A DNA stretch of 64,000 nt from Sphingopyxis sp. (GTDB lineage Bacteria > Pseudomonadota > Alphaproteobacteria > Sphingomonadales > Sphingomonadaceae), in contig NZ_CBDIIL010000002.1 of assembly GCF_965279725.1 (NCBI RefSeq), positions 147,804-211,803 of the forward strand. Reading direction: 5' to 3'. A program made the translations under genes and the position numbers. The notes below the pieces were generated by a model, which did no database searches, was not told the origin of the DNA, and saw only the letters and a program-made list of their open reading frames with translations. The number at the start of each line of letters is the position of its first letter. Within the stretch, counting starts at the first letter, position 1. Positions 20,223 through 30,753 of the stretch are shown here, piece after piece.

Positions 20223-21074
20223 TCAGTCCGCCAGCGACAGTATGTGCTTCGCCTGTTTCAGATGCGGCGCATCGACCATCTTGCCATCGACCTGAAGCAC
20301 CCCGACGCCCGGATTGGCGGCGAACGCATCGACGATCGCCTGCGCGCGCGCCGTTTCTTCGGCGCTGGGCGTGAAGGCGGCGTTGATCGGTTCGACCTGC
20401 GAGGGATGGATCGCCATCATCCCGGTAAAGCCGTCACGTCGGGCGCGGGCGGCGTAGGCGGCAAGGCCAGCCTCATCCTTGATCGCCGGAAATACCGTGT
20501 CGATCGCGGCGACGCCCGCTGCATGCGCAGCGAATAGCGTTAGCGCGCGGGCGACGTCATAGGGCGCGGTATAGCTGCCATCGGCTTCGCGGCTGGTGGT
20601 AGCGCCAATGGCGGCGGGTAAGTCTTCGGCGCCCCATGTCAGTCCAAGCAGGCGGTCTTTCGCCTCGCGGTAGCTGCCAAGGGTGAAGATTGCCGCGGCA
20701 GTTTCGGTAGCGATCGGCAGAATGGGAGGCAGCGACGCTTCGGCGGCGCCTTCGCTGCGCAGAATCAGGTCGAGCTGCGCGATACTCGGCGCGCCTTCCG
20801 CCTTGGGCAACATGATCGCGTCGGGCTGCGCGGCGATGATCGCGGCGATATCGGCGGCGGTCAGGTGGCCGTCGAGCGGATTGACCCGCACCAGCGTGAC
20901 CACTTCGCGTGTTCCCCCCAGATAATCGGCGATCGCATGGCGCGCCATATCCTTGTTCGCCAGCGACACCGAATCCTCGAGGTCGAGGATGATCGCATCG
21001 GCGCCCGACGCGGCTGCCTTGGCAAAGCGTTCGGGCCGGTCGCCGGGGACGAAAAGGAGGGAACGTAGTCTCAT
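20223..21074 (-). CDS. citE: CitE / HpcH-HpaI family CoA-ester lyase
   Basis: RSLLFVPGD, DLEDSV, VRVN, IATET, WGAEDL, IHPSQV, GKMVDAPH. Start set at ATG 21074. Confidence 0.88.
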   Translation of the reverse strand: MRLRSLLFVPGDRPERFAKAAASGADAIILDLEDSVSLANKDMARHAIADYLGGTREVVTLVRVNPLDGHLTAADIAAIIAAQPDAIMLPKAEGAPSIAQLDLILRSEGAAEASLPPILPIATETAAAIFTLGSYREAKDRLLGLTWGAEDLPAAIGATTSREADGSYTAPYDVARALTLFAAHAAGVAAIDTVFPAIKDEAGLAAYAARARRDGFTGMMAIHPSQVEPINAAFTPSAEETARAQAIVDAFAANPGVGVLQVDGKMVDAPHLKQAKHILSLAD

Positions 21075-21096
21075 AGGTTCAACTATGCCGGTCGTG

Positions 21097-21147
21097 TCGA
21101 GCGAAGTCGAGACACGGAAGGGGCAAACGGTTCTCGACTTCGCTCGA
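21097..21147. repeat. REP-like inverted repeat TCGAGCGAAGTCGAGA
   Basis: Perfect 16-bp inverted repeat (21097-21112 / 21132-21147) between the restored maoC stop and the citE start. Confidence 0.85.
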
Positions 21148-21160
21148 ACCGAACGCGGAT

Positions 21161-21609
21161 TTATGGTTTTCGTTGAACCAGCGTCGAACGCTCGCACTGG
21201 CAGACAAGTTCATCGCGCTGGTTGATACAGCGGTGGAGGAGGTGACGATCCCGGCATTGGGCCGCGATTTCGATTCTTTCAGCCCGATGACCTCGCTCGT
21301 CGCGCGCAGCGTGTCGCCGATAAACACCGGCTTCGGCATCACCAGCTTGTCATAGCCGAGGTTGGCGACAAGCGTCCCCAACGTCGTGTCGCCGACCGAC
21401 AGCCCGACCATCAGGCTGAAGGTGAAGGTGCCGTTGACGAGGATCTGGCCGAACTCCGACGCCTTCGCCGCTTCGACGTCGAGGTGCAGCGGCTGCGGAT
21501 TATGCGTCATCACCGTGAACAGCAGATTGTCGGTCTCGGTCACGGTACGGCGGATTTCGTGGGTCAGCGTGTCGCCGATGGTCCATTCATCGAAATATTT
21601 GCCAGCCAT
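21161..21609 (-). pseudogene. MaoC-family dehydratase with a 1-nt deletion near 21240 (pseudogene or sequencing error)
   Basis: MaoC motifs [26 protein letters not shown]. The span is 449 nt (3n-1). Restoring one base gives ...[30 protein letters not shown]. Confidence 0.85.
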
Positions 21610-21626
21610 CTCTCAACTCCGAAATA

Positions 21627-21729
21627 TGTCGTGCTGAACTTGTTTCAGCATCCATCGCCTGTTCTCTCGTCTGGCGCTGAGTCTATTTTGACGCTGGGCC
21701 ATAGACCCTGAAACAAGTTCAGGGTGACG
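21627..21729. repeat. REP-like inverted pair with core CTGAACTTGTTTCAG
   Basis: Perfect 15-bp core inverted repeat at 21634-21648 / 21708-21722. Each arm is its own hairpin. Confidence 0.85.
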
Positions 21730-21740
21730 AAGAATAGGGA

Positions 21741-23585
21741 CTATTCGCTCGCCGCCTCAATCCGCACCAGCAGCGCCTCAACCTGCACCTGCGCGCCCGG
21801 TTTCGCATTAAGCTCGGCCACGACGCCGTCGAACGGCGCGGTCAGGCTATGCTCCATCTTCATGGCTTCAAGGGTGAGCAGTTTCTGGCCCTTGGTCACC
21901 TTGTCCCCGGCCGCGACCTCGACCGCGATGACCTTGCCGGGCATCGGCGAGAGGATCGCGCCGTCGCCGGCGGCGGCGCCCGCGCTGGCATTGGCGCGCC
22001 ACGGCGCGAGTTGCCAGACCGAACCACCCTCAGCGACGAGCATCGCCGGCGCCGGCTGTTCGGCACCCGGGCCATGCAGTTCGACCTCGATGCGCTTGCC
22101 GTCGAGCAGGAAGGACGCCGACCGAACATCGGGCGCATTGAGGCGGAAGCCCGATTGCAGCGAGCGCGGCATCATTGCCATCGCGGCATTGGTCAGGGCT
22201 TGCTCCGACGGCACAGGTTCGGCGGTCATTGCGTCACCGTCGCGGCCGATCAGGCCGGTATCGACGGTGCCCGCGATGAAATCGGGATGGTCGAGCGCAT
22301 TGATCAAGAAAGCCGAATTGGTCTTCACCGGCCAGATCGCGCAGTCCTCGAGCATCTCCGACAATGTCAGCCGTGCTTCCTCGCGATCCTCGCCATAGGC
22401 GATGACTTTGGCGATCATGGGATCGTAGAAAGGCGAGACCTCGGCGCCTTCATAGACGCCGGTGTCGATGCGCCCGCCATCCGCCTCGGACAGCTGAAAC
22501 AGTTCGAGCGTGCCGATCGAGGGCAGGAAGCCCTTCGCCGGATCCTCGGCATATAACCGCGCCTCCATCGCCCAGCCGTCGATGCTGAGCTCACCCTGCC
22601 GCAGCGGCAACGGCTCACCGCTAGCCACGCGCAACTGCCATTCGACCAGATCGACTCCGGTAATCTCCTCGGTCACCGGATGCTCAACCTGCAAGCGCGT
22701 GTTCATTTCCATGAACCAGATGCGATCGGCGCGCAGGCCTTCGCTGGCGTCGGCGATGAATTCGATCGTTCCGGCGCCGACATAGTCGACCGCCTGCGCC
22801 GCGCGCACCGCGGCGGCGCACAGCGCCTCGCGGGTGATCTCGTCCATGCCGGGGGCCGGGGCTTCCTCGATCACCTTCTGGTGGCGGCGTTGCAGTGAGC
22901 AGTCGCGCTCGAAAAGGTGGACGACATTGCCGTGGGTGTCGCCGAACACCTGCACCTCGATATGGCGCGGGGTCAGGATATATTTCTCGATCAGCACATG
23001 GTCGTTGCCGAACGACGCCGCGGCCTCGCGCTGGCACGAGGCGAGCGCGTCGATGAAATCCGCGGGGTCATCGACCTTGCGCATGCCTTTGCCGCCGCCG
23101 CCCGCGACCGCCTTGATCAGGACGGGGTAGCCGATCTCGGCGGCTTGTTCGGCGAGGAAAGCGGGATCCTGATTTTCACCCATATAGCCAGGGGTCACCG
23201 GCACTCCGGCTTCGGCCATCAATTTCTTGGCGGCGTCTTTCACACCCATCGCGGTGATCGACGAGGGGTCGGGGCCGACCCATATCAACCCGGCGTCGAT
23301 CACCGCCTGCGCCAACGCGGCATTCTCCGACAGGAAGCCGTAACCCGGATGGATCGCCTCGGCGCCGGTCGCCTTCGCGGCAGCAATGATCTTTTCGCCA
23401 ACCAGATAGGATTCGCGCGCCGGCGACGGCCCGATATGCACCGCCTCGTCGGCCTGCCGCACATGCAGCGCCTTGGCATCGGCGTCCGAATAGACCGCAA
23501 CGGTGCGAATGCCCATCTCGCGCGCGGTACGAATGATGCGACAAGCGATTTCGCCGCGATTGGCGATGAGGAGGGAGGTGATCAT
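21741..23585 (-). CDS. liuD: 3-methylcrotonyl-CoA carboxylase alpha (biotin carboxylase plus biotin carrier)
   Basis: LIANRGEIA, HPGYGFLSEN, GGGGKGMR, RDCSLQRRHQKVIEEAP, EMNTRLQVEHPVTE, EAMKME. Confidence 0.9.
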   Translation of the reverse strand: MITSLLIANRGEIACRIIRTAREMGIRTVAVYSDADAKALHVRQADEAVHIGPSPARESYLVGEKIIAAAKATGAEAIHPGYGFLSENAALAQAVIDAGLIWVGPDPSSITAMGVKDAAKKLMAEAGVPVTPGYMGENQDPAFLAEQAAEIGYPVLIKAVAGGGGKGMRKVDDPADFIDALASCQREAAASFGNDHVLIEKYILTPRHIEVQVFGDTHGNVVHLFERDCSLQRRHQKVIEEAPAPGMDEITREALCAAAVRAAQAVDYVGAGTIEFIADASEGLRADRIWFMEMNTRLQVEHPVTEEITGVDLVEWQLRVASGEPLPLRQGELSIDGWAMEARLYAEDPAKGFLPSIGTLELFQLSEADGGRIDTGVYEGAEVSPFYDPMIAKVIAYGEDREEARLTLSEMLEDCAIWPVKTNSAFLINALDHPDFIAGTVDTGLIGRDGDAMTAEPVPSEQALTNAAMAMMPRSLQSGFRLNAPDVRSASFLLDGKRIEVELHGPGAEQPAPAMLVAEGGSVWQLAPWRANASAGAAAGDGAILSPMPGKVIAVEVAAGDKVTKGQKLLTLEAMKMEHSLTAPFDGVVAELNAKPGAQVQVEALLVRIEAASE

Positions 23586-24028
23586 GGACGATCCTCCCCG
23601 GCACGGGGAGGGGGACCATCCGCAGGATGGTGGAGGGGTACAGGCGTATTGCCTTTACGCTGCGCGATCTTCACCGCTCGCTCCGTACAAATCTCGACAA
23701 TTCGTGTCACCACTGCCTCCAAGTCATTCAAAACCGCAGTCGCGGGAACTCGCAGCACCGCTACATGCTGCGAACGTAAAAATTCGGTTCGCGCTGCATC
23801 GCTCTTCTTTGCGACCGCGCCGTCATGTGTTTGCCCATCGACCTCAATCGCCAGCCGAACGGCGGCGCAGTAGAAGTCGAGGACATAAATGCCCGCCGGA
23901 TGTTGCCGGCGATATTTGAAGCCGCCTGGCCTGTGCCGCAACGCACGCCAGAGTATCGTCTCGGGCAAACTCATCTCGCTACGCAGTTTGCGTGCGCGTT
24001 TGAGCGTGTCGCGCGGGCCGGTGATCAC
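23582..24028 (-). CDS. DUF559 / Vsr-like (very-short-patch) endonuclease domain protein
   Basis: ARKLRSEMSLPETILWRALR, YRRQHPAGIYVLDFYC, AIEVDGQTH, RTEFLRSQ..VLR. The C-terminal tail is read through the left repeat. Confidence 0.88.
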   Translation of the reverse strand: MITGPRDTLKRARKLRSEMSLPETILWRALRHRPGGFKYRRQHPAGIYVLDFYCAAVRLAIEVDGQTHDGAVAKKSDAARTEFLRSQHVAVLRVPATAVLNDLEAVVTRIVEICTERAVKIAQRKGNTPVPLHHPADGPPPRAGEDRP

Positions 24029-24083
24029 CGAGGGTGCCCCTCCACCATGCTTCGCATGGTCCCCCTCCCCGTGCCGGGGAGGA
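23592..24083. mobile_element. DUF559 nuclease cassette bounded by 47-bp inverted repeats
   Basis: Arms 23592-23638 and 24037-24083 are 44/47 identical in inverted orientation and enclose only the nuclease gene. Inserted between liuB and liuD. No target-site duplication visible. Confidence 0.7.
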
Positions 24084-24104
24084 CCGAGAGACGCCGCCGC
24101 ATCA

Positions 24105-25703
24105 TTACATCCGGAACACGCCGAAGCCGCGATCCTCGATCGGGGCGTTCAGCGTTGCGGCAAAGGCCAGCCCGAGCACGTCGCGCGTCTGGGCGGGGTC
24201 GATGATGCCGTCGTCCCACAGGCGCGCGGTGGCGTGATAAGGATTTCCTTCATCCTCATATTTCTGACGGATCGGCGCCTTGAACGCTTCAGCTTCCTCG
24301 GGCGTCCATTTGTCCGCATCGCGGTGGACGGTTGCCAGCACCGATGCGGCTTGCTCGCCGCCCATCACGCTGATCCGGCTGTTAGGCCAGCTGAACAAGA
24401 AACGCGGCGAGTAGGCGCGGCCGCACATGCCGTAGTTGCCCGCGCCGAAGCTGCCGCCGATCAGCACGGTGATCTTGGGAACCGTCGCGGTCGCGACTGC
24501 GGTGACCAGCTTCGCGCCATGCTTGGCGATCCCCTCGGCCTCATATTTGCCCCCGACCATGAAGCCGCTGATGTTCTGGAGGAAGAGCAGGGGGATGCGG
24601 CGTTGCTGGGCGAGTTCGATAAAATGCGCGCCCTTGACCGCGGATTCGCTGAACAAAACCCCATTGTTGGCGAGGATCGCGACCGGGATGCCCCAGATAT
24701 GGGCAAAACCGCACACCAGCGTGCTGCCGTAATTCGCCTTGAACTCGTGAAACTCGCTGGCGTCGACGATGCGCGCAATGACTTCGTGGACATCGTAAGG
24801 CGCGCGGACGTCGTCGGGGACGACGCCATAAAGCTCTTCGCCATCATATTTCGGCGGGCGTGGGTCCTTCAGGACAACTTCGAATCCTCTGTTTTCGCCC
24901 AGATGGCTGATGATGTCGCGGACGATGGTCAGCGCATGCTCGTCATTCTCAGCCAGATGATCGACGACGCCTGACTTCTTGGCATGGAGGTCCCCGCCCC
25001 CCAGATCCTCGGCGCTGATTTCTTCGCCGGTCGCAGCTTTCACCAGCGGCGGGCCGGCGAGGAAGATCGTGCCCTGATTGCGCACGATCACCGTCTCGTC
25101 GGACATCGCTGGCACATAAGCGCCGCCTGCGGTGCAACTGCCCATCACGCAAGCAATCTGGGGAATGCGGCGCGCCGACATGTTCGCCTGGTTGAAGAAG
25201 ATGCGCCCGAAATGATCGCGGTCGGGAAAGACTTGATCCTGGTGCGGCAGGTTAGCTCCGCCGCTGTCGACGAGATAGATGCACGGCAGGCGGTTCTCGA
25301 GCGCAATCTCCTGCGCGCGCAGATGCTTTTTCACCGTCAGCGGATAATAGGTGCCGCCCTTCACCGTCGCATCGTTGCACACGATCATGCACTGGCGTCC
25401 CGATACGCGGCCGATGCCGCAGATCAGCCCGGCGCCAGGAATCTCGCCGTCATACAGGTCGTGTGCGGCGAGCTGGCCGATCTCGAGGAACGGTGAGCCC
25501 GGATCGAGCAGTCGCTCGACGCGTTCGCGCGGAAGCAACTTGCCGCGGCTTGTATGCCGTTCACGCGACTTTTCGTTGCCGCCCAGCGCAGCCTCGGCGA
25601 CCCGCGCCCGCAGTGCGTCGTTCAGCGCGCGGTTATGCGCGACACGCGTGCGATACTCGTCGCTATCCGCGTTGATGCTGGTGCCAAGGACCGGAGCGCT
25701 CAC
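24105..25703 (-). CDS. liuB: 3-methylcrotonyl-CoA carboxylase beta (carboxyltransferase)
   Basis: [59 protein letters not shown]. Confidence 0.92.
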
Positions 25704-28239: not shown

Positions 28240-28583
28240 GCTGCACCCAATAAAGTGAACACGCCCGATGCGGCCAGCAACGGCCAGCCGATATGCCGCC
28301 CGCGGGTGTAGATCGCGTCGAAAAGTCCGGTCGCCGCCCATGCTCCGCCGATCAGCAGGATCAGCCCGCGCGGCGTTCCCGGCCAGACCACCGATGCGGC
28401 CGATACCAGCATCAGCAGCGACAACGCGTGCCACGCGAGCCGAAAAACCTTGCGCGCCAGATCGAAGCCCATGATGCCTTCATCGAGGGTCAGCAGAGGC
28501 CCGATCAACCGACGCTCGCCCAATACGCCGTGAACAACGGCCGTCGTCACCATGAAGGCGGCCGACAGCCAGAGCCAGATCAC
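28236..28583 (-). CDS. Small hypothetical membrane protein (about 4 TM)
   Basis: GTG start overlapping the liuA TGA. Contains [17 protein letters not shown] and HIGW motifs. Confidence 0.72.
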
Positions 28584-29749
28584 GTGCCGGCACCGATCAG
28601 TTCGCGGCCGATCAGCATCCGGCGAATCTCGTTCGTCCCCGCGCCGATGTCGAGCAGCTTGGCGTCGCGCCAGTAACGCTCGACAGGCCAATCCTTCGTG
28701 TAACCTGCGCCGCCCAGTGCCTGGATCGCTTCGCCAGCGACTTTCACCGCGTTTTCGCTTGCGAGCAGGATACAGCCCGCGGCGTCAAAGCGCGTCGTCT
28801 GGCCGGCATCGCATGCCTTGGCGACGTTATAGACATAGGAGCGCGCCGACTGGAGCATGACATACATGTCGGCGACCTTCGCCTGCATCAGCTGGAACGA
28901 ACCGATCGGTTTACCGAACTGCTTTCGCTCGCGAACGTAGGGAATGACAGTATCGAGACAGGCCTGCATGATGCCGAGCTGGAGCCCGGCGAGCACGACG
29001 CGCTCATAATCGAGGCCGGACATCAGCACGCCGACGCCGCCATTTTCCGGCCCCATGACCTGCTCTTCGGACACCTTGCAATCGTTGAAGACAAGCTCCG
29101 CGGTTGGTGAGCCGCGCATGCCGACCTTGTCGATCTTTTGCCCGATGCTGAACCCCGGCATATCCTTTTCGATCAGGAACGCCGTTATCCCACGCGATCC
29201 GGCCTCGGGGCTGGTCTTGGCATAGACGACCAGTGTGTCCGCATGCGTCGCGTTGGTGATCCAGAATTTGGTGCCGTTGAGGACGTAGCCGCCCTGAACG
29301 CGATCGGCCTTCAGCTTCATCGACACGACGTCGCTGCCCGCTCCAGCTTCGGACATCGCGAGGCTTCCGACATGCTCGCCGCTGATCAGCTTGGGCAGAT
29401 ATTTCGCCTTCTGCTCGGCATTGCCCCAGCGGCGGATCTGGTTGACGCAAAGGTTCGAGTGCGCGCCGTAGCTAAGGCCGATCGCACCCGACGCGCGCGA
29501 CACTTCTTCGACCGCAATAACATGCTCGAGATAGCCGAGGCCAAGGCCGCCAAATTCTTCCTCGACGGTGATGCCGTGCAGACCCAGATCGCCCATCTGC
29601 GTCCATAGTTCGTCGCGCGGGAACCAGTCTTCGGCGTCCGCTTTCGCAGCGAGCGGCGCGATCTGTTCGTCGGCGAAGCGGGCGGTGGTGTCGCGGATCA
29701 TGTCGGCGGTTTCGCCGAGCGCGAAATCGAAGTCGGGGGTTGCGCGCAT
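28580..29749 (-). CDS. liuA: Isovaleryl-CoA dehydrogenase
   Basis: [61 protein letters not shown]. Start set at ATG 29749. Confidence 0.92.
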
Positions 29750-29836: not shown

Positions 29837-29853
29837 CATAAACAAAATCTATG
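29837..29853. promoter_or_regulatory. LysR-type T-N11-A recognition site (CATA-N9-TATG)
   Basis: Dyad CATAAACAAAATCTATG overlapping the LysR start codon, in the divergent liuA/LysR gap. Confidence 0.6.
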
Positions 29854-30753
29854 ATTAAGCGCGCCCATGTCCGCCAGTTTCTTGCCGTCGTCGACGCAGG
29901 CAGTTTTACGCAAGCGGCAGCGCGGATTCGGGTAACGCAACCGGCGTTGTCGAGCGGGATCGCCGAGCTGGAGAAGCTGGTCGGTGCCCTGTTGTTTATC
30001 CGCAATCGCCGCCAGATACGGTTGACCGAAGCGGGCGGGCGTTTCCTGCCCATCGCGCGCGATCTGGAACGCGGGTTTCGCGCCGCTGACGATTTCGGTC
30101 GCGATAACGATCGGCGGGCGACCGAGCTCAAGCTTGGCGTGATCCGCTCAGCGCCGGGTGAATTGCTGCAAGCGATCGTCGCGGCGCTTCGGCCCAGCTT
30201 TGCCATCGAGATTATCGAAAACAGCGAGTCCGAACTGCGCGCCATGCTTGGCAGTGGACGCATCAACATGGCGCTCGTTCCGCTTCGGAGCGGCGAGCAC
30301 GGGGCGCATGTGATGCCGCTATATGAAGAGCCGCTCGTGATGTTCGTCGCGATGGACCATCCACTTGCGGCGCGCATCGCTGTCGGCCCTGAGGAACTGG
30401 CGGCCGAGACGATGATAGCACGCCGCTCGTGCGAATTTTTGGACGCAACGAGCCGCTTCTTCACCCGCCACGGTGTCCGGCCGCGCTTTGCCTTGCGTAG
30501 CGAAAGTGACGAGCGATGCTTGCGCATGGTCGCCGCCGGGATCGGGATTACCACGGCACCCCTATCGCTGGCGATCGACGGCATCATGCCGCTGAAAGTA
30601 ATGGGCTATGATTTCCGGCGCGAATTGGGATTGATCACCGATCCGGCATGGCGCGTTTTGCCCGACGTCGCACCGCAGCTTGCCCACGCGCTCCAGATGA
30701 TCACGGCGATCGCCGTCGAATGGCGCGAGACCAAAGTCGATGGCGCGGCATGA
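29851..30753 (+). CDS. LysR-family transcriptional regulator
   Basis: FLAVVDAGSFTQAAARIRVTQPALSSGIAELE...LFIR..RQIRLTEAG. Confidence 0.93.
   Translation: MIKRAHVRQFLAVVDAGSFTQAAARIRVTQPALSSGIAELEKLVGALLFIRNRRQIRLTEAGGRFLPIARDLERGFRAADDFGRDNDRRATELKLGVIRSAPGELLQAIVAALRPSFAIEIIENSESELRAMLGSGRINMALVPLRSGEHGAHVMPLYEEPLVMFVAMDHPLAARIAVGPEELAAETMIARRSCEFLDATSRFFTRHGVRPRFALRSESDERCLRMVAAGIGITTAPLSLAIDGIMPLKVMGYDFRRELGLITDPAWRVLPDVAPQLAHALQMITAIAVEWRETKVDGAA

Follow-up and report, generated by a model that had tools for sequence, protein, structure and literature searches.

A MaoC-type hydratase and a CitE-like lyase in the leucine catabolic gene cluster of a Sphingopyxis species: a candidate route through (R)-HMG-CoA

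We analysed a stretch of 64,000 nucleotides (nt), hereafter the window (contig C2:147804-211803), from a 3.42-Mb, 99.98%-complete Sphingopyxis genome, and found that it carries this species' liu gene cluster, for the catabolism of leucine and isovalerate, with a maoC-type and a citE-like gene at one end. The final two steps of leucine breakdown are probably carried out by the MaoC-type hydratase and the CitE-type lyase encoded there, through the (R) isomer of 3-hydroxy-3-methylglutaryl-coenzyme A (HMG-CoA). The genome lacks the canonical enzymes for these steps, LiuC (crotonase fold, (S)-HMG-CoA) and LiuE (DRE-TIM HMG-CoA lyase [HMGL] fold). The first-pass annotation of the window had proposed such a route; gene content, the missing canonical enzymes, the operon, the distribution of the genes among relatives and conserved active-site residues all argue for it, while its stereochemistry we infer from the face selectivity of MaoC-type hydratases versus crotonases and from the specificity of characterised lyases.

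In the proposed pathway, LiuA would convert isovaleryl-CoA to 3-methylcrotonyl-CoA, and LiuB and LiuD would convert the latter to 3-methylglutaconyl-CoA. The MaoC protein would then add water on the face opposite to that used by crotonases, yielding (R)-HMG-CoA, which the CitE-like lyase would split into acetoacetate and acetyl-CoA. Acetoacetate would be activated by a CoA-transferase of the ScoAB type, whose genes were located outside the liu cluster, at C3:509018-511184.

Crotonases convert (E)-3-methylglutaconyl-CoA to (S)-HMG-CoA, and MaoC-type enzymes hydrate the other face of the double bond, which by the priority rules would give (R)-HMG-CoA. CitE/Ccl-type lyases bind (S)-citramalyl-CoA, a configuration that corresponds to (R)-HMG-CoA. 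Rv2498c of Mycobacterium tuberculosis and PA0883 of Pseudomonas aeruginosa are both (R)-HMG-CoA-specific lyases (PMC6689899). LiuC and LiuE would have been exchanged as a pair, because a hydratase and a lyase acting in sequence must agree on one stereoisomer, and their replacement by the hot-dog and HpcH/CitE folds would imply the opposite stereoisomer of HMG-CoA.

The liu cluster and the missing LiuC and LiuE

Genes were called from an open reading frame (ORF) listing and from Pfam and NCBIfam scans of the window proteins. The features of the cluster, in window coordinates, are as follows.

20223..21074, minus strand: citE-like beta-hydroxyacyl-CoA lyase gene, 283 amino acids (aa); PF03328, 121 bits; proposed (R)-HMG-CoA lyase
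21089..21155, unstranded: palindrome resembling repetitive extragenic palindromic (REP) elements, in the maoC-citE spacer; 24-nt inverted repeat
21161..21609, minus strand: maoC-type hot-dog hydratase gene; PF01575, 86 bits; proposed (R)-specific 3-methylglutaconyl-CoA hydratase
21634..21722, unstranded: another repeat element, lying in the spacer between liuD and maoC; 26-nt inverted repeat
21741..23585, minus strand: liuD (mccA), alpha subunit of 3-methylcrotonyl-CoA carboxylase (MCC); biotin carboxylase and biotin carboxyl carrier protein (BCCP) domains in Pfam
23582..24028, minus strand: DUF559 (Vsr-like endonuclease) gene; PF04480, 94 bits
24105..25703, minus strand: liuB (mccB), beta subunit (carboxyltransferase) of MCC; PF01039, 527 bits
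25754..27934, plus strand: M13 peptidase gene; Pfam M13_N and M13
28580..29749, minus strand: liuA, isovaleryl-CoA dehydrogenase (IVD), 389 aa; three acyl-CoA dehydrogenase domains; ATG at 29749
29851..30753, plus strand: LysR-type regulator gene, divergent from liuA; HTH_1 and LysR_substrate

The minus-strand series liuB, DUF559, liuD, maoC and citE described in the first-pass annotation was borne out by Pfam and NCBIfam, as was its statement that the window holds neither a crotonase nor an HMG-CoA lyase, since all PF00378 and PF00682 matches of the genome lie outside it. The liuA and LysR genes sit beyond the segment 20223-25703, past the inserted M13 peptidase gene.

The identity of the cluster was assessed against other families of the same order (sister families), which carry the canonical cluster LysR-liuB-liuC-liuD-liuE-liuA. 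MccB of the window was 64-73% identical to the sister-family carboxyltransferase, which lies within a canonical liu cluster in all seven cases examined (7/7). IVD was 65-69% identical to the IVD of canonical LysR-liuB-liuC-liuD-(liuE)-liuA clusters, and the liuD product 49-63% identical to MccA of canonical clusters in these families. A LysR gene divergent from the liu cluster is likewise found in the sister families and across Sphingomonadaceae, with 38-47% identity between families. Orthologues of LiuA, LiuB and LiuD are thus clustered here with a regulator, as in canonical liu clusters. The genome's second carboxyltransferase was only 52% identical to MccB.

Reference LiuC and LiuE sequences were drawn from liu clusters of the sister families; LiuE from these families scored 460 bits on NF004283 and LiuC 283 bits on NF005675. 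A genome-wide PF00682 search matched only LeuA (2-isopropylmalate synthase) and 4-hydroxy-2-oxovalerate aldolase, with no HMGL-type lyase, the HMG-CoA lyase model NF004283 reached at best 23.5 bits in the genome against a cut-off of 246, and tblastn of sister-family LiuE against the genome returned nothing at E<=1e-3. No LiuC-type crotonase was found genome-wide either, the best NF005675 score being 143 bits versus 283 for true LiuC. Sister-family LiuC proteins, which are 50-59% identical among themselves, matched the crotonases of the genome at <=36% identity, and the best match differed by query. Generic NCBIfam crotonase models (ten proteins, eight of them crotonases) were discarded as a test for LiuC, which they did not distinguish from other crotonases. 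Neither gene of the canonical pair was therefore found by PF00682, NF004283, NF005675 or tblastn, extending to the whole genome what the first-pass annotation had noted for the window. A genome-wide search detected no CitF (PF04223); the CitE-like protein hence does not belong to a citrate lyase.

A second carboxylase cluster at C2:691853-699095 comprises genes for a MarR regulator, a crotonase, an acyl-CoA dehydrogenase, separate biotin carboxylase and BCCP proteins and a carboxyltransferase. Its crotonase is not LiuC-like (98.9 bits on NF005675). The cluster is possibly atu-like, for branched or terpenoid acids, and a paralogue of the CitE-like lyase, CitE2, could serve it, the genome having no HMGL-type lyase.

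The hydratase-lyase pair and its distribution

The citE ORF as listed (20223-21197, 324 aa) is over-extended, and the real ATG lies at 21074. The CitE protein matched PF03328 over profile positions 1-221 of 221 (121.4 bits, cut-off 25), which places it in the HpcH/HpaI-CitE superfamily of Mg-dependent beta-hydroxyacyl-CoA lyases. It scored 174 bits on both the citrate lyase beta equivalog TIGR01588 (cut-off 443) and the RipC/Ccl equivalog NF038242 (cut-off 375), below either cut-off. Its PDB matches were RipC (1e-37), Rv2498c (3e-35) and the ‘acyl-CoA lyase beta chain’ entries 9nzb and 8khl (6-7e-35). In Rv2498c, the catalytic Arg and the Mg-binding Glu and Asp are R64, E112 and D138, and G-A-E-D forms the carboxylate-binding loop (PMC6689899). 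An alignment to 6aq4 showed that the equivalents of R64, E112, G135-A136-E137-D138 and V181 are kept in the window CitE, so that the Mg-binding and substrate-binding residues are conserved, and they are near-invariant across the 64-row liu-type CitE clade. Thr (or Ser) at the position of Rv2498c M133 was considered as a marker of the liu type and rejected, as it fails to set the clade apart from the remaining CitE-like sequences.

In a tree built from 205 CitE-like proteins, the 45 lyases linked to MCC (mcc) genes all formed one clade with SH-like support of 97, and CitE2 of the same genome fell outside it. Rv2498c scored 125 bits against the window CitE, and each of the 150 closest representatives of 50%-identity clusters scored >=170 bits. 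By these scores, the window CitE is a same-family analogue of Rv2498c and not a close orthologue, more than 150 such clusters being closer, and this distant kinship suggests that its recruitment may be independent of that in mycobacteria. The nearest cluster representatives were uninformative on the liu link: one (P0001) is solitary and another (P0003) belongs to a maoC-citE pair without mcc genes.

The CitE2 gene forms a paralogous pair with maoC2 at C2:670924-672236, ~54% identical to the liu pair. The surrounding cluster (C2:666119-674351) encodes a thiolase-like protein, an HMG-CoA-synthase-like/DUF35 fusion, two acyl-CoA dehydrogenases and two short-chain dehydrogenases/reductases, and further genomes (G119, G422) share its trio of thiolase, MaoC2 and CitE2.

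The MaoC protein matched PF01575 (86.5 bits, cut-off 27) and scored 115 bits on the RipB/Ich itaconyl-CoA hydratase equivalog NF038241, under the cut-off of 340. Its closest named relatives are from Sphingopyxis species, with 91-97% identity.

The distribution of these genes was tallied in an order-wide sample of 121 genomes, for 27 genomes of the window's family (Sphingomonadaceae) and 93 of nine other families, with thresholds of E<=1e-45 for CitE-like proteins and >=59% identity for liu-type MaoC. MccB was present in 26/27 and 81/93 genomes, respectively. CitE-like proteins were found in 26/27 and 1/93, and HMGL-type lyases in 8/27 and 91/93. Liu-type MaoC was detected in 24 of the 27 Sphingomonadaceae, two further members having the MaoC2 type only, and the nine other families yielded no match above 51% identity. 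The distribution of maoC-citE is therefore approximately the complement of that of canonical liuC/liuE in the sister families. The HMGL-type genes of Sphingomonadaceae were all of one type, ~40% identical to the query. The only member of the family without MccB, the complete genome G054 of genus g21, also lacked MaoC, CitE and an HMGL-type lyase; its entire leucine module seems to have disappeared together.

We compared 80 named Sphingomonadaceae loci with maoC at the centre, drawn from Sphingopyxis, Sphingorhabdus, Sphingobium, Sphingomonas, Novosphingobium, Erythrobacter and other genera; mccA adjoined maoC in 53 and a liu-type citE lay in the locus in 39. The usual order was LysR / IVD-MccB-(DUF559)-MccA-MaoC-CitE, often with the maoC stop overlapping the citE start; the maoC-citE pair is thus kept in an operon with liuA, liuB and liuD across the family. 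In a phylum sample of 401 genomes, an mccA-maoC-citE triad was also carried by five genomes from three alphaproteobacterial families other than Sphingomonadaceae, with MaoC 68-75% identical; three of the five were without HMGL-type and LiuC-like genes, and two had both.

Two further occurrences were recorded. A contig assigned to Acidovorax delafieldii CCH4-A2 (locus L181) carries a whole sphingomonad-like LysR-IVD-MccB-DUF559-MccA-MaoC cluster (81-87% identity for IVD, MccB and MaoC; 70% for MccA), likely a contamination or a transfer. Four metagenome-assembled genomes of the gammaproteobacterial Steroidobacteraceae (L186, L209, L213, L219) have a CitE2-like gene and a MaoC 76-80% identical to sphingomonad MaoC, with no mcc genes nearby.

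Several insertions interrupt the cluster. The core of the palindrome at 21089-21155, GAGCGAAGTCGAGA, has 117 copies in the genome, and CTGAACTTGTTTCAG of the element at 21634-21722 has 16; the depth of read-derived contigs spikes at the former and is very high at the latter. Since the stop codon of maoC and the start codon of citE overlap (TGATG) in most relatives, we read these REP-like spacer elements, which also resemble miniature inverted-repeat transposable elements, as recent insertions that uncoupled maoC and citE. The DUF559 gene is an insertion and not a pathway gene. It is flanked by 53-nt inverted repeats (23589-23641 and 24034-24086, 91% complementary), occurs at the liuB-liuD junction in only some relatives and in either orientation, and is missing in close relatives. 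DUF559 genes, 41-76% identical, are found at this junction in many Sphingomonadaceae (loci L157, L158, L162, L173, L179, L181, L194, L207, L216, L218, L232), a pattern that suggests several insertions into a single site. The M13 peptidase gene splits liuA from liuB, on the opposite strand, in some Sphingopyxis loci (e.g. L155, L158, L160); it is missing from the Sphingopyxis loci L154, L156 and L157, where IVD directly precedes MccB. A search for a shared operator upstream of liuA, liuB and solitary maoC in six genomes revealed no common motif; several of the solitary maoC genes just come after a different gene, e.g. one for an aldehyde dehydrogenase.

Alternative readings

Several points weigh against a liu-dedicated MaoC-CitE pair acting through (R)-HMG-CoA. 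Literature searches found no report of 3-methylglutaconyl-CoA hydratase activity in a MaoC-type protein, M. tuberculosis included, and the roles given to the sphingomonad enzymes rest on sequence and context. On the NCBIfam equivalogs RipC and RipB, CitE and MaoC stay far under the cut-offs, and they are only distantly related to Rv2498c, so that function is transferred at the family level. Complementarity with the canonical genes is imperfect, an HMGL-type gene being present in the same 8/27 Sphingomonadaceae and in 2/5 of the triad genomes outside the family, and many genera have maoC and citE dispersed instead of joined in the operon. In the assembly, finally, a frameshift removes 27 residues of MaoC, including the invariant F124, H126, N130, Q131, R141 and L144, and the contigs that restore the frame are of low depth (2-5.5x) and come from one study.

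The pair might instead be mainly an itaconate/citramalate module, like RipB/RipC or Ich/Ccl, that merely stands beside liu genes, with the leucine route finished by unrecognised enzymes or incomplete. The best NCBIfam matches of the pair are indeed RipB/Ich and RipC/Ccl, Rv2499c and Rv2498c act on itaconyl-CoA and citramalyl-CoA (PMC11789021, PMC6689899), and MaoC-CitE pairs without mcc genes are known (P0003, the CitE2-type pairs and those of Steroidobacteraceae). We nevertheless consider this reading unlikely. Both proteins fall far short of the equivalog cut-offs (115 versus 340 bits and 174 versus 375 bits), and the CitEs linked to liu genes group in a clade apart. The pair accompanies MccB in presence and in loss, and it is precisely where MaoC-CitE is present that canonical liuC and liuE are lacking. 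No CoA-transferase gene lies within ~77 kb of citE: the nearest family III gene is ~77 kb off, the class I ScoAB genes are on another contig, and none of the seven family III genes of the genome (0/7) is near any CitE-like gene. The use of itaconate or citramalate, which the first-pass annotation had raised as an additional capacity, is therefore without support from gene context, and a second activity on itaconate would be compatible with the leucine route proposed here. A model guessed to represent RipA, NF038240, turned out to describe an unrelated family, and its result was dropped. It is highly improbable that the carboxylase is another acyl-CoA carboxylase (e.g. geranyl-CoA carboxylase-like) and that MaoC and CitE act on a different branched 3-carboxymethyl-enoyl-CoA. 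NCBIfam having no specific MCC model, the subunits do match only generic carboxylase models; the second carboxylase cluster at C2:691853-699095 contains a crotonase and an acyl-CoA dehydrogenase, but its carboxyltransferase is only 52% identical to MccB and its crotonase is not LiuC-like by NF005675 (98.9 bits). MccB (64-73%) and IVD (65-69%) of the window are the closest matches of the genes that lie in sister-family canonical liu clusters.

The frameshift bears on whether the strain can complete the route. A 1-nt deletion at 21239/21240 interrupts the maoC frame behind codon 123, and the expected C-terminus is legible in another frame down to 21161. At the break the relatives have GTGACCTTCCTCCAC and the window has GTCACC-TCCTCCAC; 22 same-genus orthologues are intact and encode 150 aa. 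Contigs of four public runs (X20-X23; three samples, one study) are identical to the window over 20985-21373 apart from an extra A behind 21239, and because they restore the frame exactly as in the relatives, the frameshift is most likely an assembly error. If it were real, maoC would be a fresh pseudogene, and the strain could not finish leucine catabolism or would depend on MaoC2. The assembly itself, with GTCACC-TCCTCC where all relatives have GTGACCTTCCTC, the invariant residues in the lost C-terminus, the MaoC2-CitE2 pair at C2:670924-672236 and two genomes of the same family (G104 and G119) with the MaoC2 type only in an mcc-containing background would fit a pseudogene. We regard this as very unlikely, given the frame-restoring A in contigs from three samples and the remainder of maoC, which shows no decay and whose protein is 95-98% identical to that of close relatives. 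Programmed frameshifting was ruled out by the plain intact frame in relatives and in the read-derived contigs.

Relation to known systems

The M. tuberculosis precedent invoked by the first-pass annotation is real. Rv2498c shares an operon with accD1 and accA1 (Ehebauer et al. 2015, PMC4347857), its hot-dog neighbour Rv2499c hydrates itaconyl-CoA (PMC11789021), and the (R)-HMG-CoA route was called unprecedented on its discovery in this organism (2019, PMC6689899). As in the mycobacterial module, the Sphingopyxis cluster unites both MCC subunits, alpha and beta, with an acyl-CoA dehydrogenase, a lyase of the CitE family and a small hydratase of the hot-dog fold, in a genome without an HMGL-type lyase, and the lyase keeps the Mg-binding and substrate-binding residues of Rv2498c. 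It differs in belonging to another phylum, in gene order, in its LysR regulator (versus the mycobacterial TetR-type BkaR) and in having scoAB outside the cluster; the lyase is not closely orthologous to Rv2498c (125 bits, with >150 closer clusters).

With the canonical liu clusters of Pseudomonas and the sister families, the Sphingopyxis cluster shares orthologous LiuA, LiuB and LiuD, a divergent LysR gene, the same pathway logic and the same end products; it differs from them in lacking a crotonase-type LiuC and an HMGL-type LiuE anywhere in the genome. Ich/RipB and Ccl/RipC (RipBC of Yersinia; the Ccl PA0883 of P. aeruginosa) belong to the same two families as MaoC and CitE, are likewise an adjacent pair and provide their best NCBIfam and PDB matches. 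Unlike these, the window pair has no itaconate CoA-transferase in its cluster, lies inside a liu operon and includes a lyase of a separate CitE clade.

Our literature searches found no proteobacterial or sphingomonad (R)-HMG-CoA route, no MaoC-type methylglutaconyl-CoA hydratase and no fitness data. The (R)-HMG-CoA route has so far been shown only in M. tuberculosis, from which this type of pathway is already known. On balance we favour a wider reading, in which the (R)-HMG-CoA route would be the standard, and often the only, leucine route of all Sphingomonadaceae and of several other alphaproteobacterial lineages, LiuC and LiuE having been lost through a stereochemically coupled double displacement and the hydratase being a dedicated hot-dog (R)-specific 3-methylglutaconyl-CoA hydratase. 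GapMind for carbon sources explicitly states a single leucine degradation route; because only one route is modelled, pathway tools would probably call the sphingomonad leucine route incomplete. Two named genes would fill this gap in a large and environmentally important family, and their distribution suggests that the mirror-image route may be widespread in free-living Proteobacteria. The pair would also offer a clean example of two non-homologous enzymes replaced together, bound by the stereoisomer of their shared intermediate, in non-pathogenic bacteria, simple to culture, that would lend themselves to study of the putative hydratase step.

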